Positions 19,476 through 63,592 of a stretch of 64,000 nt of DNA are shown here, one piece after another. The stretch is from Candidatus Berkelbacteria bacterium. GTDB lineage: Bacteria; Patescibacteriota; UBA1384; 2-12-FULL-50-11. The notes beneath the pieces are model-generated. The model did no database searches. It saw only the letters and a list, made by a program, of their open reading frames with translations, and was not told where the DNA came from. The position numbers and the translations under genes were made by a program. How positions within the stretch are numbered: position 1 is the stretch's first letter; each line of letters begins with the position of its first letter. The DNA lies in contig CP066697.1 in NCBI GenBank assembly GCA_016432625.1, forward strand, positions 392,409 through 456,408. Direction: 5' to 3'.

Positions 19476-20000
19476 ATGGCACGCGACATGGATTTTCGAA
19501 GACCAACGCGGTCGGTGGTAAATACTGCCCCCACCACACACGGAAAAAAACCTCGCCGCACGACGTGGCCAATGCTGATGCTAGTGGTCGGGCTCGGCCT
19601 TGCTGCCGTTGGTCTTTTTGCTAGTTATTACAACAGCTCCTCCGACTCCGTTAAGCCGACGACTACAACGGACACACCCGTAACCTCGGATGAACCTAGC
19701 GGTAATTCAGCCGATGTATTTTCAAATAAAAATACTGCTTTCGAAGTCAAGATCTACGACTCGGGTGCCGGCGACGAAGCGGTAGACTCTACCACGGCAC
19801 TACTAACTGAAAAAGGATACACGGTTAAAAAGCTGGGCAAATCACAGTTTGTTTACGACAAGACTTACATTTGGCACATTCAAACTAGGCTGTCCGAGGC
19901 TCAAACAATCGGCGCTTTATTGCAGGGTAGGGAAGTCAGTTATAAAGAATCGCAGAACTCAGGTGGCTTCGAATTGTTAATTTACCTGGGCAAACAATAG
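19476..20000 (+). CDS. Membrane protein with a LytR_C (cell-envelope-related) domain
   Basis: TM helix, Thr/Ser-rich linker, then VKIYDSGAGDEAVDSTTALLTEKGYTV...FELLIYLGK, the LytR_C pattern. Confidence 0.55.
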   Translation: MARDMDFRRPTRSVVNTAPTTHGKKPRRTTWPMLMLVVGLGLAAVGLFASYYNSSSDSVKPTTTTDTPVTSDEPSGNSADVFSNKNTAFEVKIYDSGAGDEAVDSTTALLTEKGYTVKKLGKSQFVYDKTYIWHIQTRLSEAQTIGALLQGREVSYKESQNSGGFELLIYLGKQ

Positions 20001-20022
20001 CTTTTTAAGGTAAACTGAATAC

Positions 20023-20145
20023 ATGTTAGGTCTAACTCCACCAACAAGTTACGCCAACCAACGAGTCGGCGTTTTCACTGCGAGCAAACCTTCGCGAGAA
20101 GAAAAACGCTGCAACGAGTCAAGAGGGAATAAATGCTCGGTTTGA
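20023..20145 (+). other. 40-codon uORF whose first 18 codons duplicate the NYN gene N-terminus
   Basis: MLGLTPPTSYANQRVGVF is encoded twice, at 20023 and 20133, with 11 nucleotide differences that are all synonymous. The uORF then diverges and stops (TGA) 13 nt after the main ATG. Confidence 0.4.
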
Positions 20146-20660
20146 CACCTCCGACAAGTTACGCGAATCAACGCGTCGGCGTTTTTATCGATATCCAGAA
20201 CATGTACTACAGCGCCCGGGCGATGTATGACAGCCACGTCAACTTCGGCAAAATACTTGAGCACGCCGTTAACAAGAGGCAACTTATTCGCGCTATTGCT
20301 TACGTCGTTCGTTCAGACGCGCCGAAGGAGCAAACTTTCTTTGACGCTTTGGAGAAAGTCGGCCTAGAGATCCGTTCTAAAGACATCCAGATTTTTCCCG
20401 GTGGTGAAAAGAAAGGCGACTGGGACGTTGGCGTTGCCGTTGATGCAATTAAAATTGCTGACCGTCTCGACGTGGTTGTTTTGGTCACCGGCGACGGAGA
20501 TTTCTTACCGCTGGTCACATATCTCAAGGAGAATAAAGGGTGCCGCGTTGAAGGCATCGCGTTCGGTCGTAGTACTTCTTCCCGGCTAATCGAGGCTCTC
20601 GATCACTTTTACGACCTGGACGCAAACGCTAAAGATTATTTGATCAAAACGAAACACTAA
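20133..20660 (+). CDS. NYN/LabA-like domain protein (DUF88)
   Basis: VGVFIDIQNMYYSARA, VVLVTGDGDFLPLV are LabA/NYN nuclease-fold motifs. Confidence 0.7.
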   Translation: MLGLTPPTSYANQRVGVFIDIQNMYYSARAMYDSHVNFGKILEHAVNKRQLIRAIAYVVRSDAPKEQTFFDALEKVGLEIRSKDIQIFPGGEKKGDWDVGVAVDAIKIADRLDVVVLVTGDGDFLPLVTYLKENKGCRVEGIAFGRSTSSRLIEALDHFYDLDANAKDYLIKTKH

Positions 20661-26960: not shown

Positions 26961-27205
26961 ACTCTACCTTAAATCAGACAGAAAGTCAAGGTTCTAAGGG
27001 TGAAAAATGTAGTCGAAAAACCGCGAGCCATGCACCTGTGATGACAGGATCAGCGAGCGGTGTTTCCCCAGCCGCTGGGGCAGCGTGCAGGGGGTGGAGT
27101 GAAGAGGTAGGGGGACAGCTTCGCAACTCGGTCCCCCTACCTCTTCAAAGAGTCCGAGGTTACGCTTAACTTAAAGCAAATTTATTGCTACAATAATTCC
27201 TACAT

Positions 27206-44868: not shown

Positions 44869-47838
44869 TTATAATTCGTCAATTGGCTGCAGGCCTGAAT
44901 CAGTTGGTTTAGATGTCGCTTTACTCTCGTTCGTCAGGCCTAGGGTCTCGGCTTGATCCCAGGTTATTAAGCGATCTTGGGCACTTTGTTCGATGTCTCC
45001 CCTACTCCAATCATCGCCGCCAGCTTTTTTCTGCTCGCTCTCCCCTATTTCCTGGGCGATGTGCTTCTCGATAATTGGGGCTGTTTCTTCAGCAATAACG
45101 CCTTCGCGAACAGGCGGAGTAACCACAACGTCCCGCACCTGTTCAACTGGTGAGGGGTCGACGTCGTTTTCAACCTGTCCATCAGGTTCATTTTTTAGCT
45201 CACCGCTGCCAGTGACGGCGTACCAATTGCGACTGAAACGGTCTTTTAGAATCTCAATCTTCGAGCCTTTTGGTAGTGACGGCGTCGTCTCTTGCTCGGG
45301 CTTTTTGGCGACATTAGTTGGTTCTGCGTTAGCAAAACCCTTGTCCTGAGGTGTCACATTACCCGGACCGGCCAACGTCACGGTACTACCTTCCCCGGCC
45401 GCCTTGCCAGCTTCAACCGCGCTCAAGTCAATCGGCGCTGACCACTCGGCGATATAATCTTCAACGTCTGTTTTAGACATACTGAATTGCTCGCGGCTGG
45501 ATTCTACCACCTGGCTCACTACGTCCGTTTTATCCGCCGGCGGCGGTAAAGTGTTGGCGGAAAATGCCGGCGCCGTAACGCCGTCGATCGCCATCTTAAT
45601 ATAGATCTGCCTATTTGGTAGATTAACTAAATCGTTGACGTCAAATACCGGCTCAAACTCACTCTTCATTGCCTCGGCGTCGTTCGATCCGACACGGAAC
45701 GAGACCATTGTTCCGACGTTGCCAAAAACCGCATCGCGCACTGTCTCCGGCATCTGAGCGATATATTGGTTGACCATGACAAGATTGAGGCGATACTTGC
45801 GCGCTTCACTGAGGATTGTGGCGAAAGAATCCGTGGCAAAGTTCTGAAACTCATCAACATACAAATAGAAGTCTCGCCGATCGGCCTCGGCAATACGTGT
45901 TCGTCCCATCGCCGCTAACTGAATCTTTGTTACTAACATCGAACCAAGCAAGGCCGAGTTATCCTCGCCGATTTTTCCGGTCGACAAATCCGCCAGTAAA
46001 ATCTTGCCGTTATTCATGACTTCATCCATACGCATTGTTGATTTCGGTTGACCAACAATATTACGGATGGTTGAGCTTGAGAGAAATTGACCGACTTTAT
46101 TTTGAATCGGCGCAATCGCTTCTTGGCGGAATTTTGGTTCGTATTTTTCGTACTCATTAACAAAGAAGTCGCGAATCACCGGGTCCTTCACTTCATTAAT
46201 AACTAAGCGGCGGTAAGAATTATCCGTTAGGATCCGCATCACGCTAAGTAGCGTCGAGTTGGGATACTCGAGCACTGCGAGAATTGAGTTGCGCAGGATG
46301 TATTCAAGACGCGGCCCCCAAGATTCGCCGAAGATTTTTTTGAAGATACCGACGACGCCGGAAGCGATGACGTTCTTCATTTCTGGGTTGTTGTCGAAGT
46401 TCTCCAGGACGTTAAAGCCGACCGGAAACTCGTGATCAGCCGGGTTAAAGTAAACCACGTCGGGGATTCTATCGGCGGGCAAGAAGGCTAATACGTGATC
46501 AATAAGCTCGCCGTGCGGATCAACAACCGCCACGCCTCGCCCTTCCCGGATATCATCGTAAATCATATTCTCGATAAATGTGGATTTTCCTGTACCCGTT
46601 TTACCGATAATGTAAGCATGCAGCCTCCGGTCATGTCGTTTAATGCCGAATTTTGTGATGTTATTACGGAAATTAGTCTGGGCAAGCACTGTTAAGTCGT
46701 CGGCTGGCACGCTACCGAGAACAGGCAAGTTAGAGGGCGGTTCCCCTTTCTTCGCTCCAGCCCAAGCAATGGTTGGCGTCGATACAGTTTCAGAAGGAAA
46801 GTGATAAAGCGTTGCGAGCTCCGTAATGTTGAGAATAATGTCCCTATCCCCCATCGCCCGGTGTTTAAATAGGTCCAGGACGCTGCGGTCGGTAACCATG
46901 TCTTTAACGATGAAGGCGTTTAGATTGAGCGTATTGAACTGCTTATAGGCCCCGACGACTTGTTCTAGCTTGGCTTTAGCAACATGTTCTTCACTAGCCG
47001 CGGCAAGAATACGGACATTAGCCTCGAACCCAAGCTTGGTGATTTTTTCCTCAATCGCTTTTATCGCCTGCTGCTCTGGCCCGCCGAGTTCGTTGTCCTT
47101 CTTGTCTTCCTTCTTTTCCTCCCCGCCCCCCTCGGGCGAGATGATTTGCTTAAAGAAGCCGACAAATAATTCTTTGCTTTCATTTACGAGTAGCTCAGTG
47201 ACACCCTTTGGTTTTTTAGGTGGTTCTTTGAGGTTCTTCACTTCATCACGCCCTAAGTCCTGCCAGTCATCATCAGCAGGACGAACAATGGTTTGGATCC
47301 AAACTTCTTCATCACCCGTTAAGCTGCTTAAGACTCCCGTGGTCGTAGCGAGCGGATCAACTTCGAAGTTAAGAAACGTTTTAATTGGGAAAGCTGTCGG
47401 CCGCTTTAAAGTTAACTCAGTGGCAACGAACCGCTTCTCTTCCGGCAGAGTAACGTAGTCTTCCTCCGGCCCGATTTCTTTGATTTCAATATTAGGGTAT
47501 TGGGCAAAGATCTGACTAACAACAAAATCTTTTAGATTAGCCGGAACGTAGACAAAGAATGTAATGCTCTGCCGGCGCGAGACAATCTCCAGGCTGATAC
47601 GTGGTTGCTCGGTAGCACCCTCCCTAAAAATTCCGTGTAGGGCAGCAAAGAATTGCTCTGCCGCCTCAGGCTTAGCAGTGTTATTCTTAGGTACCGAAAG
47701 TGAGAGTAAGGTATATTCATCGAGACCGCCAGGCCAGCTTTCCTTGGAGCTGCTGCCTTTACTTGTCCGTTTCCAAAGCCATACGGCTCCAACAATCAGT
47801 AAAGCGCTGAAGACAAGATTAATCACCACAAACGTCAT
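44869..47838 (-). CDS. Membrane-anchored P-loop ATPase, TraG/VirD4/TrwB coupling-protein-like (paralog 1, 989 aa) with a long acidic disordered tail
   Basis: N-terminal TM. Walker A HAYIIGKTGTGKST. VAVVDPHGELID and VVYFNPADHEFPVGFNVLE match the coupling-protein DPKGE / fnP..NPL pattern. Walker B FYLYVDEFQNF. Confidence 0.55.
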   Translation of the reverse strand: MTFVVINLVFSALLIVGAVWLWKRTSKGSSSKESWPGGLDEYTLLSLSVPKNNTAKPEAAEQFFAALHGIFREGATEQPRISLEIVSRRQSITFFVYVPANLKDFVVSQIFAQYPNIEIKEIGPEEDYVTLPEEKRFVATELTLKRPTAFPIKTFLNFEVDPLATTTGVLSSLTGDEEVWIQTIVRPADDDWQDLGRDEVKNLKEPPKKPKGVTELLVNESKELFVGFFKQIISPEGGGEEKKEDKKDNELGGPEQQAIKAIEEKITKLGFEANVRILAAASEEHVAKAKLEQVVGAYKQFNTLNLNAFIVKDMVTDRSVLDLFKHRAMGDRDIILNITELATLYHFPSETVSTPTIAWAGAKKGEPPSNLPVLGSVPADDLTVLAQTNFRNNITKFGIKRHDRRLHAYIIGKTGTGKSTFIENMIYDDIREGRGVAVVDPHGELIDHVLAFLPADRIPDVVYFNPADHEFPVGFNVLENFDNNPEMKNVIASGVVGIFKKIFGESWGPRLEYILRNSILAVLEYPNSTLLSVMRILTDNSYRRLVINEVKDPVIRDFFVNEYEKYEPKFRQEAIAPIQNKVGQFLSSSTIRNIVGQPKSTMRMDEVMNNGKILLADLSTGKIGEDNSALLGSMLVTKIQLAAMGRTRIAEADRRDFYLYVDEFQNFATDSFATILSEARKYRLNLVMVNQYIAQMPETVRDAVFGNVGTMVSFRVGSNDAEAMKSEFEPVFDVNDLVNLPNRQIYIKMAIDGVTAPAFSANTLPPPADKTDVVSQVVESSREQFSMSKTDVEDYIAEWSAPIDLSAVEAGKAAGEGSTVTLAGPGNVTPQDKGFANAEPTNVAKKPEQETTPSLPKGSKIEILKDRFSRNWYAVTGSGELKNEPDGQVENDVDPSPVEQVRDVVVTPPVREGVIAEETAPIIEKHIAQEIGESEQKKAGGDDWSRGDIEQSAQDRLITWDQAETLGLTNESKATSKPTDSGLQPIDEL

Positions 47839-50258
47839 CGTGTAGAAAGCGCTCTTGAGGCCGTACCCACACTCTGACTTTCAAAAACTACTGGGGATTT
47901 GGCAAAAGTTGAGCGAGTATTATTGCGGATCCAATCGGCCATTTGTTTACTGCCTTCGTTAGGACTTTTGACACCGTTCATACTAAAGGGTTTGGTTGGT
48001 GCCAAATCAACCAAAAGCTTAACATATGCCTGGAAACGATCAAGGTTGGTAAGGTCTTCTGCGGTGACTCCGGGCAATTCATGCGACAGGAACTCAGCAT
48101 CATCGGCACCAATTCGATAGCTAATCAGGGTGCCGACGTTCCCGATCACAGCGTTACGAATTTGCTCAGTTAGTTGGGCGAAATATTGGTTGGTAATATT
48201 TAAATTAAGTCGGTATTTGCGAGCCTCGGCCAGAATAGTTGCAAATGAGTCGGTCGTGAAATTTTGAAATTCATCAACGTATAAATAGAAGTCTCGTCTT
48301 TGATCCTCTGGCACATCAGCTCTACCGAATGCCGCAACCTGTAATTTAGAGACCAAAATCAGCCCCAGTAAATTAGAGTTAATTTCACCAATTTTGCCCT
48401 TGGCTAAGTTCACAAATAGAATCTTGCCAGAGTCCATCATCTCGCGGAAATTAAATGACGACTCTTTCTGGCCGATGATGTTGCGCATCAGTTCGTTCGT
48501 CATGAACCGACCGAATTTGGAGATAAAGTAGTTATACATTTCCGACTTATGAAAATCGGCCGTTTTGGCTAGTTGCTGTTCCCAGAATGCTTTGACGACA
48601 GGGTCGGTCACTTGCGAGACAGCGTAACTTCGAAAGGCGTCGTCGGTAAACAGCCTAGGAATATCGATTAGTGTTCCGCCGCCGGGCAGGCTCATGACGG
48701 TTAAGGCGGCGTTACGTGCCCAGTGTTCCCATTGTGGTCCAACGATTCCGGTGCGATTTGGGTCGAATAATTTGTAGAAGATTTCGATTACTTCTTGAAT
48801 TAGAAAATCCTTTTCTTCGGGACGTGAGTATTCAAGTAGGTTTAGGCCTAACGGATAAGACGTATCAGACGGGTCGAAAAGTACAACGTCTTTCGCTCGT
48901 TCGGTCGGTACTTTTTTGATCAGTTGCTCAATCGCATCACCCAGCGGGTCAATAAAACATAACCCCTTACCTTGGTACATATCCTGCTCAATCATACTTT
49001 CAAACAAGGTTGTTTTACCGACGCCGGTTTTACCAATCATAAACACGTGGCGCCGCCGATCGTCTTCTTTCAAATGAACCATAGTGGTCGCCCCGCGATA
49101 GTTCGTTTCACCAATTACCACGCCATCACTGGGCAAATCTGCTGGCGGCGGCAGACTTCGCGAGAGTTGCCATTTGACCCCGGGCGTTTCGAGCGCTCTC
49201 GTTGGCAGATGGAAGATACTGGAGAGCTCCTCGGCGTTTAGAATCATTTTTGGAGCGTTGGAAAACATTCGAAATAAATAATCGCGTCCCAGACGATTCG
49301 GCGCGATAATGCGGTACTTCAAGGAGTTAAATTCCGCCGCATGGAATTGGGAGAATGCAGCAATTATGACTTTTAGATTGCTCTCAGCAGACGATTCGTC
49401 CTCAGCGGTAGTCAGCACTCGCAGTATCGCTTCGAAGCCAACCTTAGCGCCCTTTTCCTGCAAGGCCTTAATTAGCTCTTCTTGCTGAGATGAGAGGTGG
49501 ATCTTCTCCCTAACGTCGCCTTGCGGTTTAGCCTGATCGAAGACTAAGCCAATCGCACGGCCGATGCGACTTCGCCCAACAAGATGAGCCCGATTCTGTA
49601 GAACTTCCTGTCCAGCCATGTGTGTATGGTGACGCCAGCGCTCGTTAGTTGGGCGGATCAGGAGTTGGATGCTTGCCGTTTCATCACTCTTCATTTTCGT
49701 TAGGGCGTTTGTCAGCGCCGAAAGCGGATCGGTTTCTAGGTATTGATAGGTCTTTAGCGGCAAGACGAAACTTTTTGACTGTTCAAATACGGCACCCGCC
49801 ACGGCTTTAGCGTGTGGCCCAAAAAGCTTAGGCGGCTTGTTCGAACTTACTTCAGCGTGCGGAAAATAGCTGTGCAGTTGTCGCTCGACTATATTCTTTA
49901 TTCGCTTTGGGCAAACGATCGAAAAATGGATAACACCACCGACCGCTGTTACTTCAAAAGAGATATGCGCCGGTGTACTGAAAAGCCAGTCAACAAAATT
50001 ACGTTGATGGATGATTGTGGTCAACGACGAGTAAAACTGCTCCATTGGGGCGATAAGATCTTTGAAATCTTTTACTGGCTCGCCAGAAACAGGTTGAGTG
50101 GCATCTCGCGGCAACGAGACAGTTAGGCACACCAAAGAATTAACATCTCTAACCATCTCTTGTTTTTGGGCACGTAATAGGTAGAACATCAAGCCAATCG
50201 GTAGCCCGACAACAATAATTCCGATTGCCCAGACCAAGTAGTTACCTAGGAACTCCAT
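47835..50258 (-). CDS. Membrane-anchored P-loop ATPase, TraG/VirD4/TrwB coupling-protein-like (paralog 2, ~807 aa)
   Basis: Same architecture: HVFMIGKTGVGKTT, LCFIDPLGDAIEQ, VVLFDPSDTSYPLGLNLLE, FYLYVDEFQNF. ATGA overlap with paralog 1. Start taken at MEFLGNYLVWAIG. Confidence 0.55.
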   Translation of the reverse strand: MEFLGNYLVWAIGIIVVGLPIGLMFYLLRAQKQEMVRDVNSLVCLTVSLPRDATQPVSGEPVKDFKDLIAPMEQFYSSLTTIIHQRNFVDWLFSTPAHISFEVTAVGGVIHFSIVCPKRIKNIVERQLHSYFPHAEVSSNKPPKLFGPHAKAVAGAVFEQSKSFVLPLKTYQYLETDPLSALTNALTKMKSDETASIQLLIRPTNERWRHHTHMAGQEVLQNRAHLVGRSRIGRAIGLVFDQAKPQGDVREKIHLSSQQEELIKALQEKGAKVGFEAILRVLTTAEDESSAESNLKVIIAAFSQFHAAEFNSLKYRIIAPNRLGRDYLFRMFSNAPKMILNAEELSSIFHLPTRALETPGVKWQLSRSLPPPADLPSDGVVIGETNYRGATTMVHLKEDDRRRHVFMIGKTGVGKTTLFESMIEQDMYQGKGLCFIDPLGDAIEQLIKKVPTERAKDVVLFDPSDTSYPLGLNLLEYSRPEEKDFLIQEVIEIFYKLFDPNRTGIVGPQWEHWARNAALTVMSLPGGGTLIDIPRLFTDDAFRSYAVSQVTDPVVKAFWEQQLAKTADFHKSEMYNYFISKFGRFMTNELMRNIIGQKESSFNFREMMDSGKILFVNLAKGKIGEINSNLLGLILVSKLQVAAFGRADVPEDQRRDFYLYVDEFQNFTTDSFATILAEARKYRLNLNITNQYFAQLTEQIRNAVIGNVGTLISYRIGADDAEFLSHELPGVTAEDLTNLDRFQAYVKLLVDLAPTKPFSMNGVKSPNEGSKQMADWIRNNTRSTFAKSPVVFESQSVGTASRALSTR

Positions 50259-50259
50259 A

Positions 50260-50553
50260 TTAGGCACCGGTATCCATGACCTGCCCAACGCGATCCTCTA
50301 AATCAGACAGGCTTGCTACTGCAATATTGGCGTCGATTTCGTTTTCCAAAAATGGGGTAACAGCCTCAGTATTAACCGTCGGCTCAGGTCCGTCCTTATA
50401 TTCCACACTCCTGGGAGCAGGTCCAACTTCAGCCGGTACGTAACCACTAACAGCTTCAGGCGGCTTTGCTTCGGACACAACAGGCTTAACCTCACCAGGT
50501 GAGAATGATTCATTAGACGTTCTTAACTCAAAGCGTTCCCCCTCGCGCTGCAT
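50260..50553 (-). CDS. Small acidic Pro/Glu-rich protein (97 aa), first gene of the ATPase operon
   Basis: Low-complexity sequence. Abuts the ATPase start. Confidence 0.35.
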   Translation of the reverse strand: MQREGERFELRTSNESFSPGEVKPVVSEAKPPEAVSGYVPAEVGPAPRSVEYKDGPEPTVNTEAVTPFLENEIDANIAVASLSDLEDRVGQVMDTGA

Positions 50554-62106: not shown

Positions 62107-62418
62107 TTACATACCTGGGAAGTTGAAGTCTTTTAAGATCGGCTGTAAACGCGCGGCGGACTCGCTCTGCGCTTTGGCCATCGCTTGGCCGATCGTGTCT
62201 TTAAGGTTGCTTTCAAGCTGATTTTTATTGCCAGCGTCGAGCGCCTCATCGGCGATAGTTATCTCGACTATTTTCATCTCACCGTTCACGATGACGCCAA
62301 CAGTACCGTCAGTGGAGCGGGCTTCGATCTCTAAATTTTTGAGTTGTTTCTGTACATCCTTTGCCTTTTTCTGCAATTGGTACATGTCTTTCATTTGTCC
62401 GAAACTTGGTAATGCCAT
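62107..62418 (-). CDS. ybaB: Nucleoid-associated protein YbaB/EbfC
   Basis: MALPSFGQMKDMYQLQKKAKDVQKQL...GLPFDPGM-like C-terminus (FNFPGM). Confidence 0.85.
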   Translation of the reverse strand: MALPSFGQMKDMYQLQKKAKDVQKQLKNLEIEARSTDGTVGVIVNGEMKIVEITIADEALDAGNKNQLESNLKDTIGQAMAKAQSESAARLQPILKDFNFPGM

Positions 62419-62485
62419 GAATTCCTTTCTTTGTTAGTAGTGCGCTCGCTTCTTACGAAATGCTAGGAGCAATTTTAGCATTTCC

Positions 62486-62572
62486 CTAAGCTTCCGTTCG
62501 GCAGTTGTCGATTGTCCACCGGACATTCGACATTTGCTGCCTCATCATCTGTCCGAAACTTGGTAATGCCAT
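62486..62572 (-). other. 28-codon uORF formed by a duplicate of the ybaB 5' end
   Basis: The 23-mer tgtccgaaacttggtaatgccat occurs at 62396-62418 (the ybaB start) and again at 62550-62572. The upstream copy encodes MALPSFGQMMRQQMSNVRWTIDNCRTEA*. Confidence 0.3.
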
Positions 62573-62599
62573 ATTTTCCTTTCTGAGTTAAAGCAAACT

Positions 62600-63592
62600 C
62601 TACCTGTAATTGATTTTACCTTGTGCGACGTGCTTTCGGTAGGCCTCGAGGAAAGGCTCGATCTCGCCGTCCAAGATATCTTGCACCGCCGAAGTCTCGT
62701 AGCCACTCCGCAGATCCTTAACCAACTGATACGGCTGTAAGACGTAAGAACGGATTTGGTTGCCCCATGAAGCTAAGACGGGTTCGCCGCGATGCTTTTG
62801 TTCTTCAGCTCGGTGCTTCTCGTCGTCGAGCAGTTGTAGTTTACCTTGTAGAATTTTTAAGGCCTGGTTTTTGTTTTGAAGCTGAGACCGTTCGTTCTGG
62901 CACGTCACAACGATCCCCGTCGGAAGGTGAGTCAAGCGTACGGCTGAGTCAGTAGTGTTAACGCCCTGTCCGCCGTGACCACCAGCTCGGTAAACATCGA
63001 TCTTTAATTCATCCGGTTTGATCGCTAATTCGCTGCGCTCAATTTCAGGTACTACTTCGACTAAGGCAAACGAGGTGTGCCTGGCCTTATCGGAATCAAA
63101 TGGACTAATGCGAACCAAACGATGCGTGCCATTTTCGCCTTTAAGCCGCCCATACGCTCGGAAACACTGAATGAAAAGGGTCGCGTTTTTAATGCCGGCC
63201 TCCTCGCCTTCGACACGATCAAGCAGTTGAACTTTGCAGTCAGCTTTTTCGGCGTATCGCATGTACATTCGCAAGAGCATTTCAGCCCAGTCCTGAGCTT
63301 CGGTACCGCCGGAGCCGGCGTGAACCGACAAGAAAGCTGAAGAATTGTCATGGGCGCCTGTGTACGTTGCTTCATCCTCAAGTTCCTCAAGCTCAGCTTC
63401 TGTTTCTGCCAGATCAAACCGCAAGATAATATCGTCTAAATGTTTCAGCTCTTGCGCGGTCTTGGCAGCACGTTCGTGATCCTCCCAGAATTTAGGATCG
63501 GCCATTTCCTGCTGAATTGCCGCCATCCGTTCACGCTTGGATGAGATATCTAAAATTGCGTCCAGTTCTTTTTTGCGATCGTCAGTGGCCAT
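62600..63592 (-). CDS. prfB: Peptide chain release factor 2, uninterrupted (no programmed frameshift)
   Basis: SPF tripeptide (RISPFDS). GGQ motif (HGGQGVNTTDSAVRLTHLPTG). Confidence 0.8.
   Translation of the reverse strand: MATDDRKKELDAILDISSKRERMAAIQQEMADPKFWEDHERAAKTAQELKHLDDIILRFDLAETEAELEELEDEATYTGAHDNSSAFLSVHAGSGGTEAQDWAEMLLRMYMRYAEKADCKVQLLDRVEGEEAGIKNATLFIQCFRAYGRLKGENGTHRLVRISPFDSDKARHTSFALVEVVPEIERSELAIKPDELKIDVYRAGGHGGQGVNTTDSAVRLTHLPTGIVVTCQNERSQLQNKNQALKILQGKLQLLDDEKHRAEEQKHRGEPVLASWGNQIRSYVLQPYQLVKDLRSGYETSAVQDILDGEIEPFLEAYRKHVAQGKINYR

Follow-up and report, generated by a model that had tools for sequence, protein, structure and literature searches.

A silently diverged duplicate of an NYN gene start and its candidate upstream open reading frame in a Candidatus Berkelbacteria genome

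Introduction

Prophages and genomic islands that attach within a gene, as e14 and phage 21 do in icd of Escherichia coli, supply a replacement for the gene end they displace; the differences between the two ends are mostly silent, and the displaced fragment lies nearby. In the rpsO-pnp leader of the same species, a hairpin precedes an RNase gene located downstream of rpsO. Insertions with long target duplication are a further described kind, in which repeats of >30 bp flank a segment that is missing in relatives, where the repeat is single, and no transposase is involved; the published repeats are near-identical, 44/46 and the like (Nobusato, Furuta and Kobayashi; PMC2853133). Here, we analyze a 64,000-nucleotide (nt) stretch of Candidatus Berkelbacteria bacterium contig CP066697.1 (positions 392,409 to 456,408, forward strand; hereafter, the window), in which the start of a gene for an NYN-domain protein is encoded twice and the first copy opens an upstream open reading frame (uORF) that overlaps the gene.

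Our favored account, to which we give roughly even odds (about 0.5), is that a 110-nt insertion duplicated the start of the gene, that a leaderless mRNA is made from the first copy, that the uORF it carries is translated, and that NYN is translated from its own Shine-Dalgarno (SD) sequence with the help of coupling.

Results

The first 18 NYN codons are present in two silently different versions

The elements of the locus, in window coordinates, are as follows.

19476-20000, forward: gene for a LytR_C-domain protein (Pfam PF13399), its stop codon 22 nt before copy 1
20009-20022, forward: promoter-like box GGTAAACT, with the -10 hexamer TAAACT at 20011-20016, followed by 6 nt (GAATAC) and the ATG
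20023-20145, forward: uORF of 40 codons and a stop, encoding MLGLTPPTSYANQRVGVF and then TASKPSREEKRCNESRGNKCSV; TGA at 20143-20145
20023-20076, forward: copy 1, the ancestral start codon and first 18 NYN codons, now severed from the gene
20077-20132, forward: spacer of 56 nt between copy 1 and copy 2, containing the SD
20121-20127, forward: SD-like AAGAGGG, 5 nt before the NYN ATG, so that copy 2 is preceded by AAGAGGG-AATAA
20133-20186, forward: copy 2, the recoded first 18 codons, continuous with the rest of NYN
20133-20660, forward: NYN-domain protein gene, an open reading frame (ORF) of 175 aa

Recomputation bore out the observation that had drawn attention to this locus in a first-pass annotation, namely that two segments encode the same peptide and differ only silently. 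Copy 1 and copy 2 differ at 11/54 nt and all 18/18 codon pairs are synonymous; the end coordinate given there, 20187, lies one base too far. Nine differences fall at third codon positions and two at first positions of Leu codons, where the pairs TTA/CTC and CTA/TTG (copy 1/copy 2) differ at both the first and the third position. At the differing positions, copy 1 has T,A,C,A,T,A,A,C,C,A,C where copy 2 has C,C,T,G,A,T,G,G,T,C,T. The repeat, which has a period of 110 nt, reaches 6 nt 5' of each ATG (GAATAC/GAATAA) and thus covers 59 nt (81% identity). A peptide-word self-comparison of the window and of 772 kb of related Candidate Phyla Radiation (CPR) loci found no other case in which a peptide of at least 7 aa recurs nearby with many nucleotide differences. 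Self-BLAST of the window returned two short dispersed direct repeats only, both on gene starts: that of NYN and that of a YbaB-family gene described below. The uORF has no Pfam match, and its exact peptide is absent from a collection of 15 billion proteins.

The region 19950-20260 is identical (100%) in two Logan contigs, which are independent assemblies of other runs. Because these assemblies carry the duplicate unchanged, an assembly artifact is excluded. The neighboring gene is present in a third sequencing run, and the NYN protein is on record in two NCBI entries. Exact look-ups of NYN, the ABC neighbor and cluster members returned only the same population, or the related loci L003 and L084.

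The window does come from a metagenome-assembled genome, and both copies end in Phe codons that one tRNA reads, so we considered together an artifact of assembly or strain mixing and a recoding device: a ribosomal bypass from UUC to UUU over 110 nt, a frameshift fusion, or the two repeats of a diversity-generating retroelement (DGR). Hardly any probability remains for this group. In addition to the independent assemblies, UUC and UUU are not identical, the putative take-off codon is followed by ACU and not by a stop, and an ordinary SD and ATG lie within the gap. The main frame ends in a TAA immediately ahead of the NYN start codon, and the differences are not confined to the adenines of either copy, as a DGR would have it.

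Copy 1 occupies the ancestral start position

The gene order LytR_C to NYN is kept in relatives. NYN has a single start in the nearest relative, L003, in L084, L004, L005 and L164, and in ~160 further NYN loci, and the first five of these also lack the spacer. In L003, L084, L004 and L005, a GGTAnAnT box stands 6-8 nt before the NYN ATG and there is no SD. Copy 1 has this same leaderless-type layout, with a -10 element ~6-8 nt before the start codon and no SD, and its box and codons 1-6 match L003 at 29/30 positions outside the -10-to-ATG spacer. Because the relatives' box and position sit at copy 1, we regard copy 1 as the displaced ancestral NYN start and not as a fragment of a paralog. The truncated paralog that had been proposed is not supported in other respects either: a motif scan detected no second NYN gene or fragment in the window or the loci, none is listed from the same 768,791-nt contig, and the relatives have no second full-length NYN gene. 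Comparison across these loci shows the 110 extra bases to consist of the 56-nt spacer and the second 18-codon copy and to be restricted to the window lineage.

From the layout of the box we infer that a leaderless transcript may start at the copy 1 ATG. A leaderless-type layout recurs in the window (e.g., at 19476, 26389, 40281, 51863 and 62600). In a survey of gene starts, a TAnAAT-like box 6-7 nt before the ATG, with no SD, was seen at many of them, including 19476, 20023, 26389, 40281, 51863 (reverse strand) and 62600-63592 (reverse strand), others being of the GGAG type; GGAG/GAGG motifs resembling the NYN SD also precede other window genes. Both modes of initiation, leaderless and SD-led, seem to be in use in this genome. 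A 17-nt start context, GGTAWACTGAATMCATG, is common to the neighboring genes at 19476 and 20023.

NYN is exceptionally conserved

The NYN protein matches Pfam PF01936 (LabA/DUF88 type; E=4e-36; 125 bits vs a cut-off of 24.2) over profile positions 1-145/145 and residues 14-163, and from its family name it is a putative RNase. It is 98% identical in amino acids and 78% in nucleotides to its counterpart in L003, compared with 62-70% for the flanking proteins, and synonymous sites in this comparison are saturated (proportion of synonymous differences, pS, 0.8-0.9). With L084, the amino acid identity is 95%, and that of neighboring proteins 42-60%. Given 98% identity despite diverged neighbors and saturated synonymous sites, NYN is under unusually strong purifying selection. 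The N-terminal tail is variable among NYN orthologs. A similar contrast was seen for LexA, which is 88% identical with L004 and L005; a LexA-like 22-nt match at window position 113 was judged to be due to chance.

Protein-level filtering shaped the divergence between the copies

Of the possible single substitutions in codons 2-18, only 27% are silent, and the probability that 11 random differences would all be silent is 6.7e-7. Under a model in which the duplicate formed in place, copy 2 tolerated silent changes only and copy 1 evolved neutrally, the silent probability per difference is 0.43, which for 11/11 gives P = 9.5e-5, or P = 0.010 for codons 7-18 alone. We can therefore rule out a neutrally decaying relic formed in place, and the two tests together show that the differences between the copies passed through selection on the protein. 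To this extent the earlier claim of protein-level selection on both copies stands; present selection on the uORF peptide does not follow from it, because a copy 2 derived from a diverged allele would look alike.

Counts of nucleotide differences between the copies and from L003 divide the repeat into two parts.

Codons 2-6: copy 1 vs L003, 2 differences; copy 2 vs L003, 6; copy 1 vs copy 2, 6
Codons 7-18: copy 1 vs L003, 9 differences; copy 2 vs L003, 11; copy 1 vs copy 2, 5

Over codons 7-18, each copy is closer to the other than to L003, a pattern that fits a duplication after the split from L003. Over codons 2-6 this does not hold: copy 1 has remained close to L003 and copy 2 has moved away, as would fit a nucleotide-level constraint on the leaderless 5' end that acts on copy 1 alone. 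Such a constraint on the copy 1 start is probably continuing, since its box and codons 1-6 are near-identical to those of L003 despite the saturation of synonymous sites.

A different history would yield the same silent pattern. Copy 1 could be the relic of a recombination between diverged alleles, in which DNA from a related Berkelbacteria lineage, bringing upstream sequence, an SD and NYN, was taken up and joined by homology-facilitated illegitimate recombination, with the homologous joint inside NYN and the illegitimate joint after resident codon 18. The silent differences would then have arisen in separate full genes, with no need of any constraint on the uORF, and copy 1 would be a recent remnant, without function and translated only by accident. 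We consider this origin possible but doubtful. Copy 2 has 3/16 codons in common with L003, vs 39% in the gene body (P=0.07), and copy 1, at 7/16, resembles an ordinary ortholog, as the import of copy 2 would predict. NYN is also conserved enough with L003 to have served as the homology anchor, and insertions with long target duplication are known mostly from naturally competent bacteria (PMC2853133). Against such an origin, profiles of G+C content at third codon positions (GC3) and of sliding identity against five orthologs along NYN gave no sign of import or mosaicism. Nor is a donor apparent: none of ~165 NYN loci, and none of the viral contigs, has a spacer-like, SD-led start, and wherever a relative has a similar N-terminus, LytR_C and the leaderless-type box lie directly upstream, neither of which the spacer shows. 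Since the copies cluster in codons 7-18, GC3 and identity profiles are unremarkable, and no donor-like start was found among 165 loci, we slightly favor an origin in place, after which copy 1 stayed under protein-level filtering, over import of copy 2 and the spacer from a diverged allele.

The spacer supplies a Shine-Dalgarno sequence and has no recognizable source

Searches for the origin of the spacer gave no significant match by blastn-short against the window and 174 loci, noise only by tblastn of all 3 frames, and nothing convincing in viral contigs scanned with the NYN protein and a 24-nt spacer pattern. Its similarity to the L003 intergenic region is weak (p=0.025 before correction for six tests) and slightly exceeds that to the 80 nt 5' of copy 1 in the window (p=0.73; 19/60 identities), a difference in the direction expected of an allele from a relative.

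These comparisons bear equally on the simplest way to produce the repeat, a tandem duplication of a 110-nt unit made up of the LytR_C end, the intergenic region and 18 NYN codons, followed by neutral decay. In a compact genome, the small duplications that spare both genes are only those across a gene boundary, and the spacer is faintly like intergenic and LytR_C-end sequences of relatives. A unit duplicated in this manner should, however, resemble its own source, and the spacer is unlike the 56-80 nt upstream of copy 1, even though it adjoins a coding repeat that is still 80% identical. As neutral decay of copy 1 is also rejected by the test above, we regard a simple tandem duplication as very improbable.

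A scan of the spacer for promoters and terminators identified no site beyond chance, and the sole terminator-like match, a 5-bp stem at chance level, lies inside the copy 2 coding sequence. The reverse complement of the spacer (20082-20105, reverse strand) encodes FSSREGLL, which resembles the ribosomal protein S15 motif DFSSRRGLL (E ~2 in the window alone, probably chance). The S15 gene, rpsO, is located upstream of NYN in many other CPR lineages.

Start-region duplications also occur at YbaB and at NYN of other lineages

A second duplicated gene start in the window belongs to a YbaB/EbfC-family gene on the reverse strand.

62107-62418, reverse: YbaB/EbfC-family gene, starting MALPSFGQM behind AGAAAGGAA; the SD and nine codons recur 154 nt upstream
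62572-62486, reverse: YbaB upstream ORF, ATG at 62572, 28 codons; the duplication region spans 62388-62590

Relatives (L168-L170) have a single copy of this start. Of the two copies in the window, it is the upstream one that occupies the ancestral site, 27 nt beyond the release-factor gene. The YbaB spacer contains two strong hairpins (z=-3.8) and an extended -10-like motif, TGCTAAAAT. The spacers of the two duplications are unrelated, which rules out a common mobile element. With regard to recombination between diverged alleles, the YbaB case adds two difficulties: its spacer cannot be aligned to the conserved 3' end of the release-factor gene that any syntenic donor would be expected to bring, and two such rare events would be required within 64 kb.

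NYN itself has a duplicated start in two other CPR lineages, L047 (2268-2497, same as L158) and L145 (2230-2520). There, the 5' untranslated region and first 4 codons (ATGATTAARCA) are duplicated with periods of 190 and 188 nt, and the copies are near-identical. The upstream copy runs into a hairpin of ~115 nt with the closing stem CCCCGCAC...GTGCGGGG (z=-4.9 and -3.1), which has no Rfam, tRNA or tmRNA match; the short ORFs there encode MIKHPALNSADKLNVKGI and MIKHPAPSPN, and ribosomes reading them would be expected to unfold the stem. The closest relative of L047 is L162, with 92% identity in NYN; it has a homologous, smaller native hairpin between rpsO and NYN and no duplication. As the right arm and downstream part of the L047/L145 element are homologous to this native hairpin, a mobile miniature inverted-repeat transposable element could be ruled out.

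Across the same 772 kb, the other genes yielded no case of a duplicated start region. Such duplication is thus a recurrent event, perhaps enriched at NYN, although the sample is small. This recurrence gives more weight to an in-place origin and, to some extent, to function.

Two further observations come from other loci. An AT-rich segment of ~126 nt in L051 (58-183) has perfect 13-nt inverted termini, CCCCGCACCTTTT...AAAAGGTGCGGGG; its outer 8 nt equal the closing stem of the L047/L145 hairpin, and TTGACCCCGCAC is also found in L066 and L147. In L125 (2694-2929), a tandem duplication with a period of 124 nt (112 nt, 2-3 differences) begins at the 3' end of the NYN gene of another lineage, so that in this gene family the opposite gene end is duplicated as well.

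Other features of the window

At 27100-27147, a palindrome with a perfect 17-bp stem, TGAAGAGGTAGGGGGAC...GTCCCCCTACCTCTTCA, lies ~60 nt before a small basic ORF at ~27207 and is not followed by a T-run; from its basic sequence, we take this ORF to be a putative gene for ribosomal protein S21. Two large adjacent genes on the reverse strand, 44869-47838 (989 aa) and 47835-50288 (817 aa), show paralogy over a stretch containing RRDFYLYVDEFQNF (122 nt, 71% identity).

Discussion

We propose that the window lineage underwent a 110-nt insertion at the NYN 5' end, in which 59 nt around the start of the gene itself were duplicated. The ancestral start would have stood 6-8 nt after a -10-like box, as in a leaderless mRNA, and the spacer would have separated this box and copy 1 from the gene and brought in an SD. 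According to this model, the box before copy 1 still drives transcription and the mRNA begins at or near the 20023 ATG. Ribosomes would read the 40-codon uORF as far as its TGA, 10 nt beyond the NYN start codon, and NYN would initiate at its own SD, plausibly helped or gated by termination-reinitiation. The net change would be from a leaderless gene to a leadered one whose output can depend on the uORF. That the uORF stop lies inside the NYN ORF had been read as typical of coupling or attenuation; the 13-nt overlap is a geometry compatible with coupling, whereas attenuation finds no terminator, alternative hairpins or significant structure to act through.

Several points weigh against this account. 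An active promoter at copy 1, a translated uORF and its coupling to NYN are each deduced from sequence. If codons 2-6 are ascribed to constraint on the promoter and 5' end, the protein-level case for copy 1 weakens to P = 0.01. The spacer is not recognizably derived from the sequence 5' of copy 1, leaving 51-56 inserted bases for which simple tandem duplication is not demonstrated. There is also little sign of a regulatory device: fold z-scores are +0.4 and -0.7 for the spacer and -1.3 for the whole leader, none indicating significant structure; Rfam yields no match at E<=1 in 19800-20400, and in the whole window only two tRNAs reach the gathering score. Finally, databases hold no relative between the window lineage and L003 from which the persistence of the uORF over time could be read.

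Should copy 1 be maintained for what it encodes, the uORF would be a functional leader peptide, its first 18 residues or the nascent chain themselves being selected; an example would be a sensor that lets NYN, as a putative RNase, recognize ribosomes bearing its own N-terminus and adjust its mRNA. Copy 1, if it diverged in place, took silent changes only and no indels, and this happened at a gene under extreme purifying selection whose start is duplicated in three separate CPR lineages, while no such duplication was found at the other genes of the same loci. We nevertheless find a leader peptide unlikely. The uORFs of L047 and L145 have only 4-6 residues in common with NYN, and the YbaB uORF has only 9 in common with its own gene, in a region that orthologs also conserve at the nucleotide level, so a requirement for the peptide as such is not general. 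The N-terminal tail varies among NYN orthologs, and the uORF lacks a comparative series, there being no intermediate relatives in databases. To our knowledge, no mechanism by which members of the NYN family sense their own N-terminus is known in bacteria, which also counts against it.

We speculate, as a reading that we would not expect to prove correct, that CPR bacteria repeatedly rebuild the 5' ends of conserved genes by duplicating start regions, and that at NYN protein-level selection has maintained the N-terminus which the uORF has in common with the gene. The uORF would then be autoregulatory, a decoy start whose translation sets the level of the putative RNase and whose sensor copies the NYN N-terminus. 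In one possible version, the NYN protein would recognize either its own N-terminus as this is being synthesized or the start region of its gene. Nothing in the analysis identified a signal or ligand for NYN control.

Either outcome would be informative. If copy 1 is only a scar, the locus would offer a clean natural switch from leaderless to leadered, SD-dependent initiation in a single step, and would extend insertions with long target duplication to the Patescibacteria, whose mechanisms of genome change are poorly known. If copy 1 is constrained as a peptide, it would represent a new type of uORF, one that re-encodes the N-terminus of the following gene, placed before a gene whose conservation (98% amino acid identity vs 62-70% for its neighbors) is among the highest in these organisms. 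In practical terms, gene callers skip both the NYN uORF and the ybaB uORF, and start-site and promoter annotation is thus easily wrong.

How does the locus compare with known systems? It shares with coupled ORFs a uORF stop 10 nt after the downstream ATG, within coupling range, and an SD inside the uORF; coupling, however, normally joins two distinct cistrons, and here the uORF, whose translation is putative, copies the start of the downstream gene. Like the trp, his and pheST attenuators, it places a short ORF before a structural gene on the same transcript, but it has no regulatory codon runs, alternative hairpins, intrinsic terminator or significant structure. A likeness to the rpsO-pnp leader is confined to L047, L145 and L162, where rpsO precedes NYN and a long hairpin lies between the two genes; NYN of the window comes after LytR_C instead, and the spacer before it lacks structure. 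Simple tandem duplication, DGRs, bypass of the T4 gene 60 type, attenuators and Rfam families all fail to accommodate the locus, as does an integrase attachment-site duplication, with 56 nt between the copies. The icd attachment sites do resemble it in that an intact gene is kept with a silently diverged, displaced end nearby, but those duplications affect the 3' end and enclose an integrase-bearing element, in contrast to the 5' end, 56 nt and absence of a recombinase gene at NYN. Structurally, the closest described kind is the insertion with long target duplication. The 59-nt repeats exceed 30 bp, the site is single copy and free of the spacer in L003, L084, L004, L005 and L164, no transposase or integrase is present, and a gene end is overlapped. 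The NYN case is distinguished from the published ones by an insert that is short (~51-56 nt), non-coding and not a restriction-modification gene complex, by duplication of a gene's 5' end, and by repeats that have diverged by 19%, at synonymous positions only.

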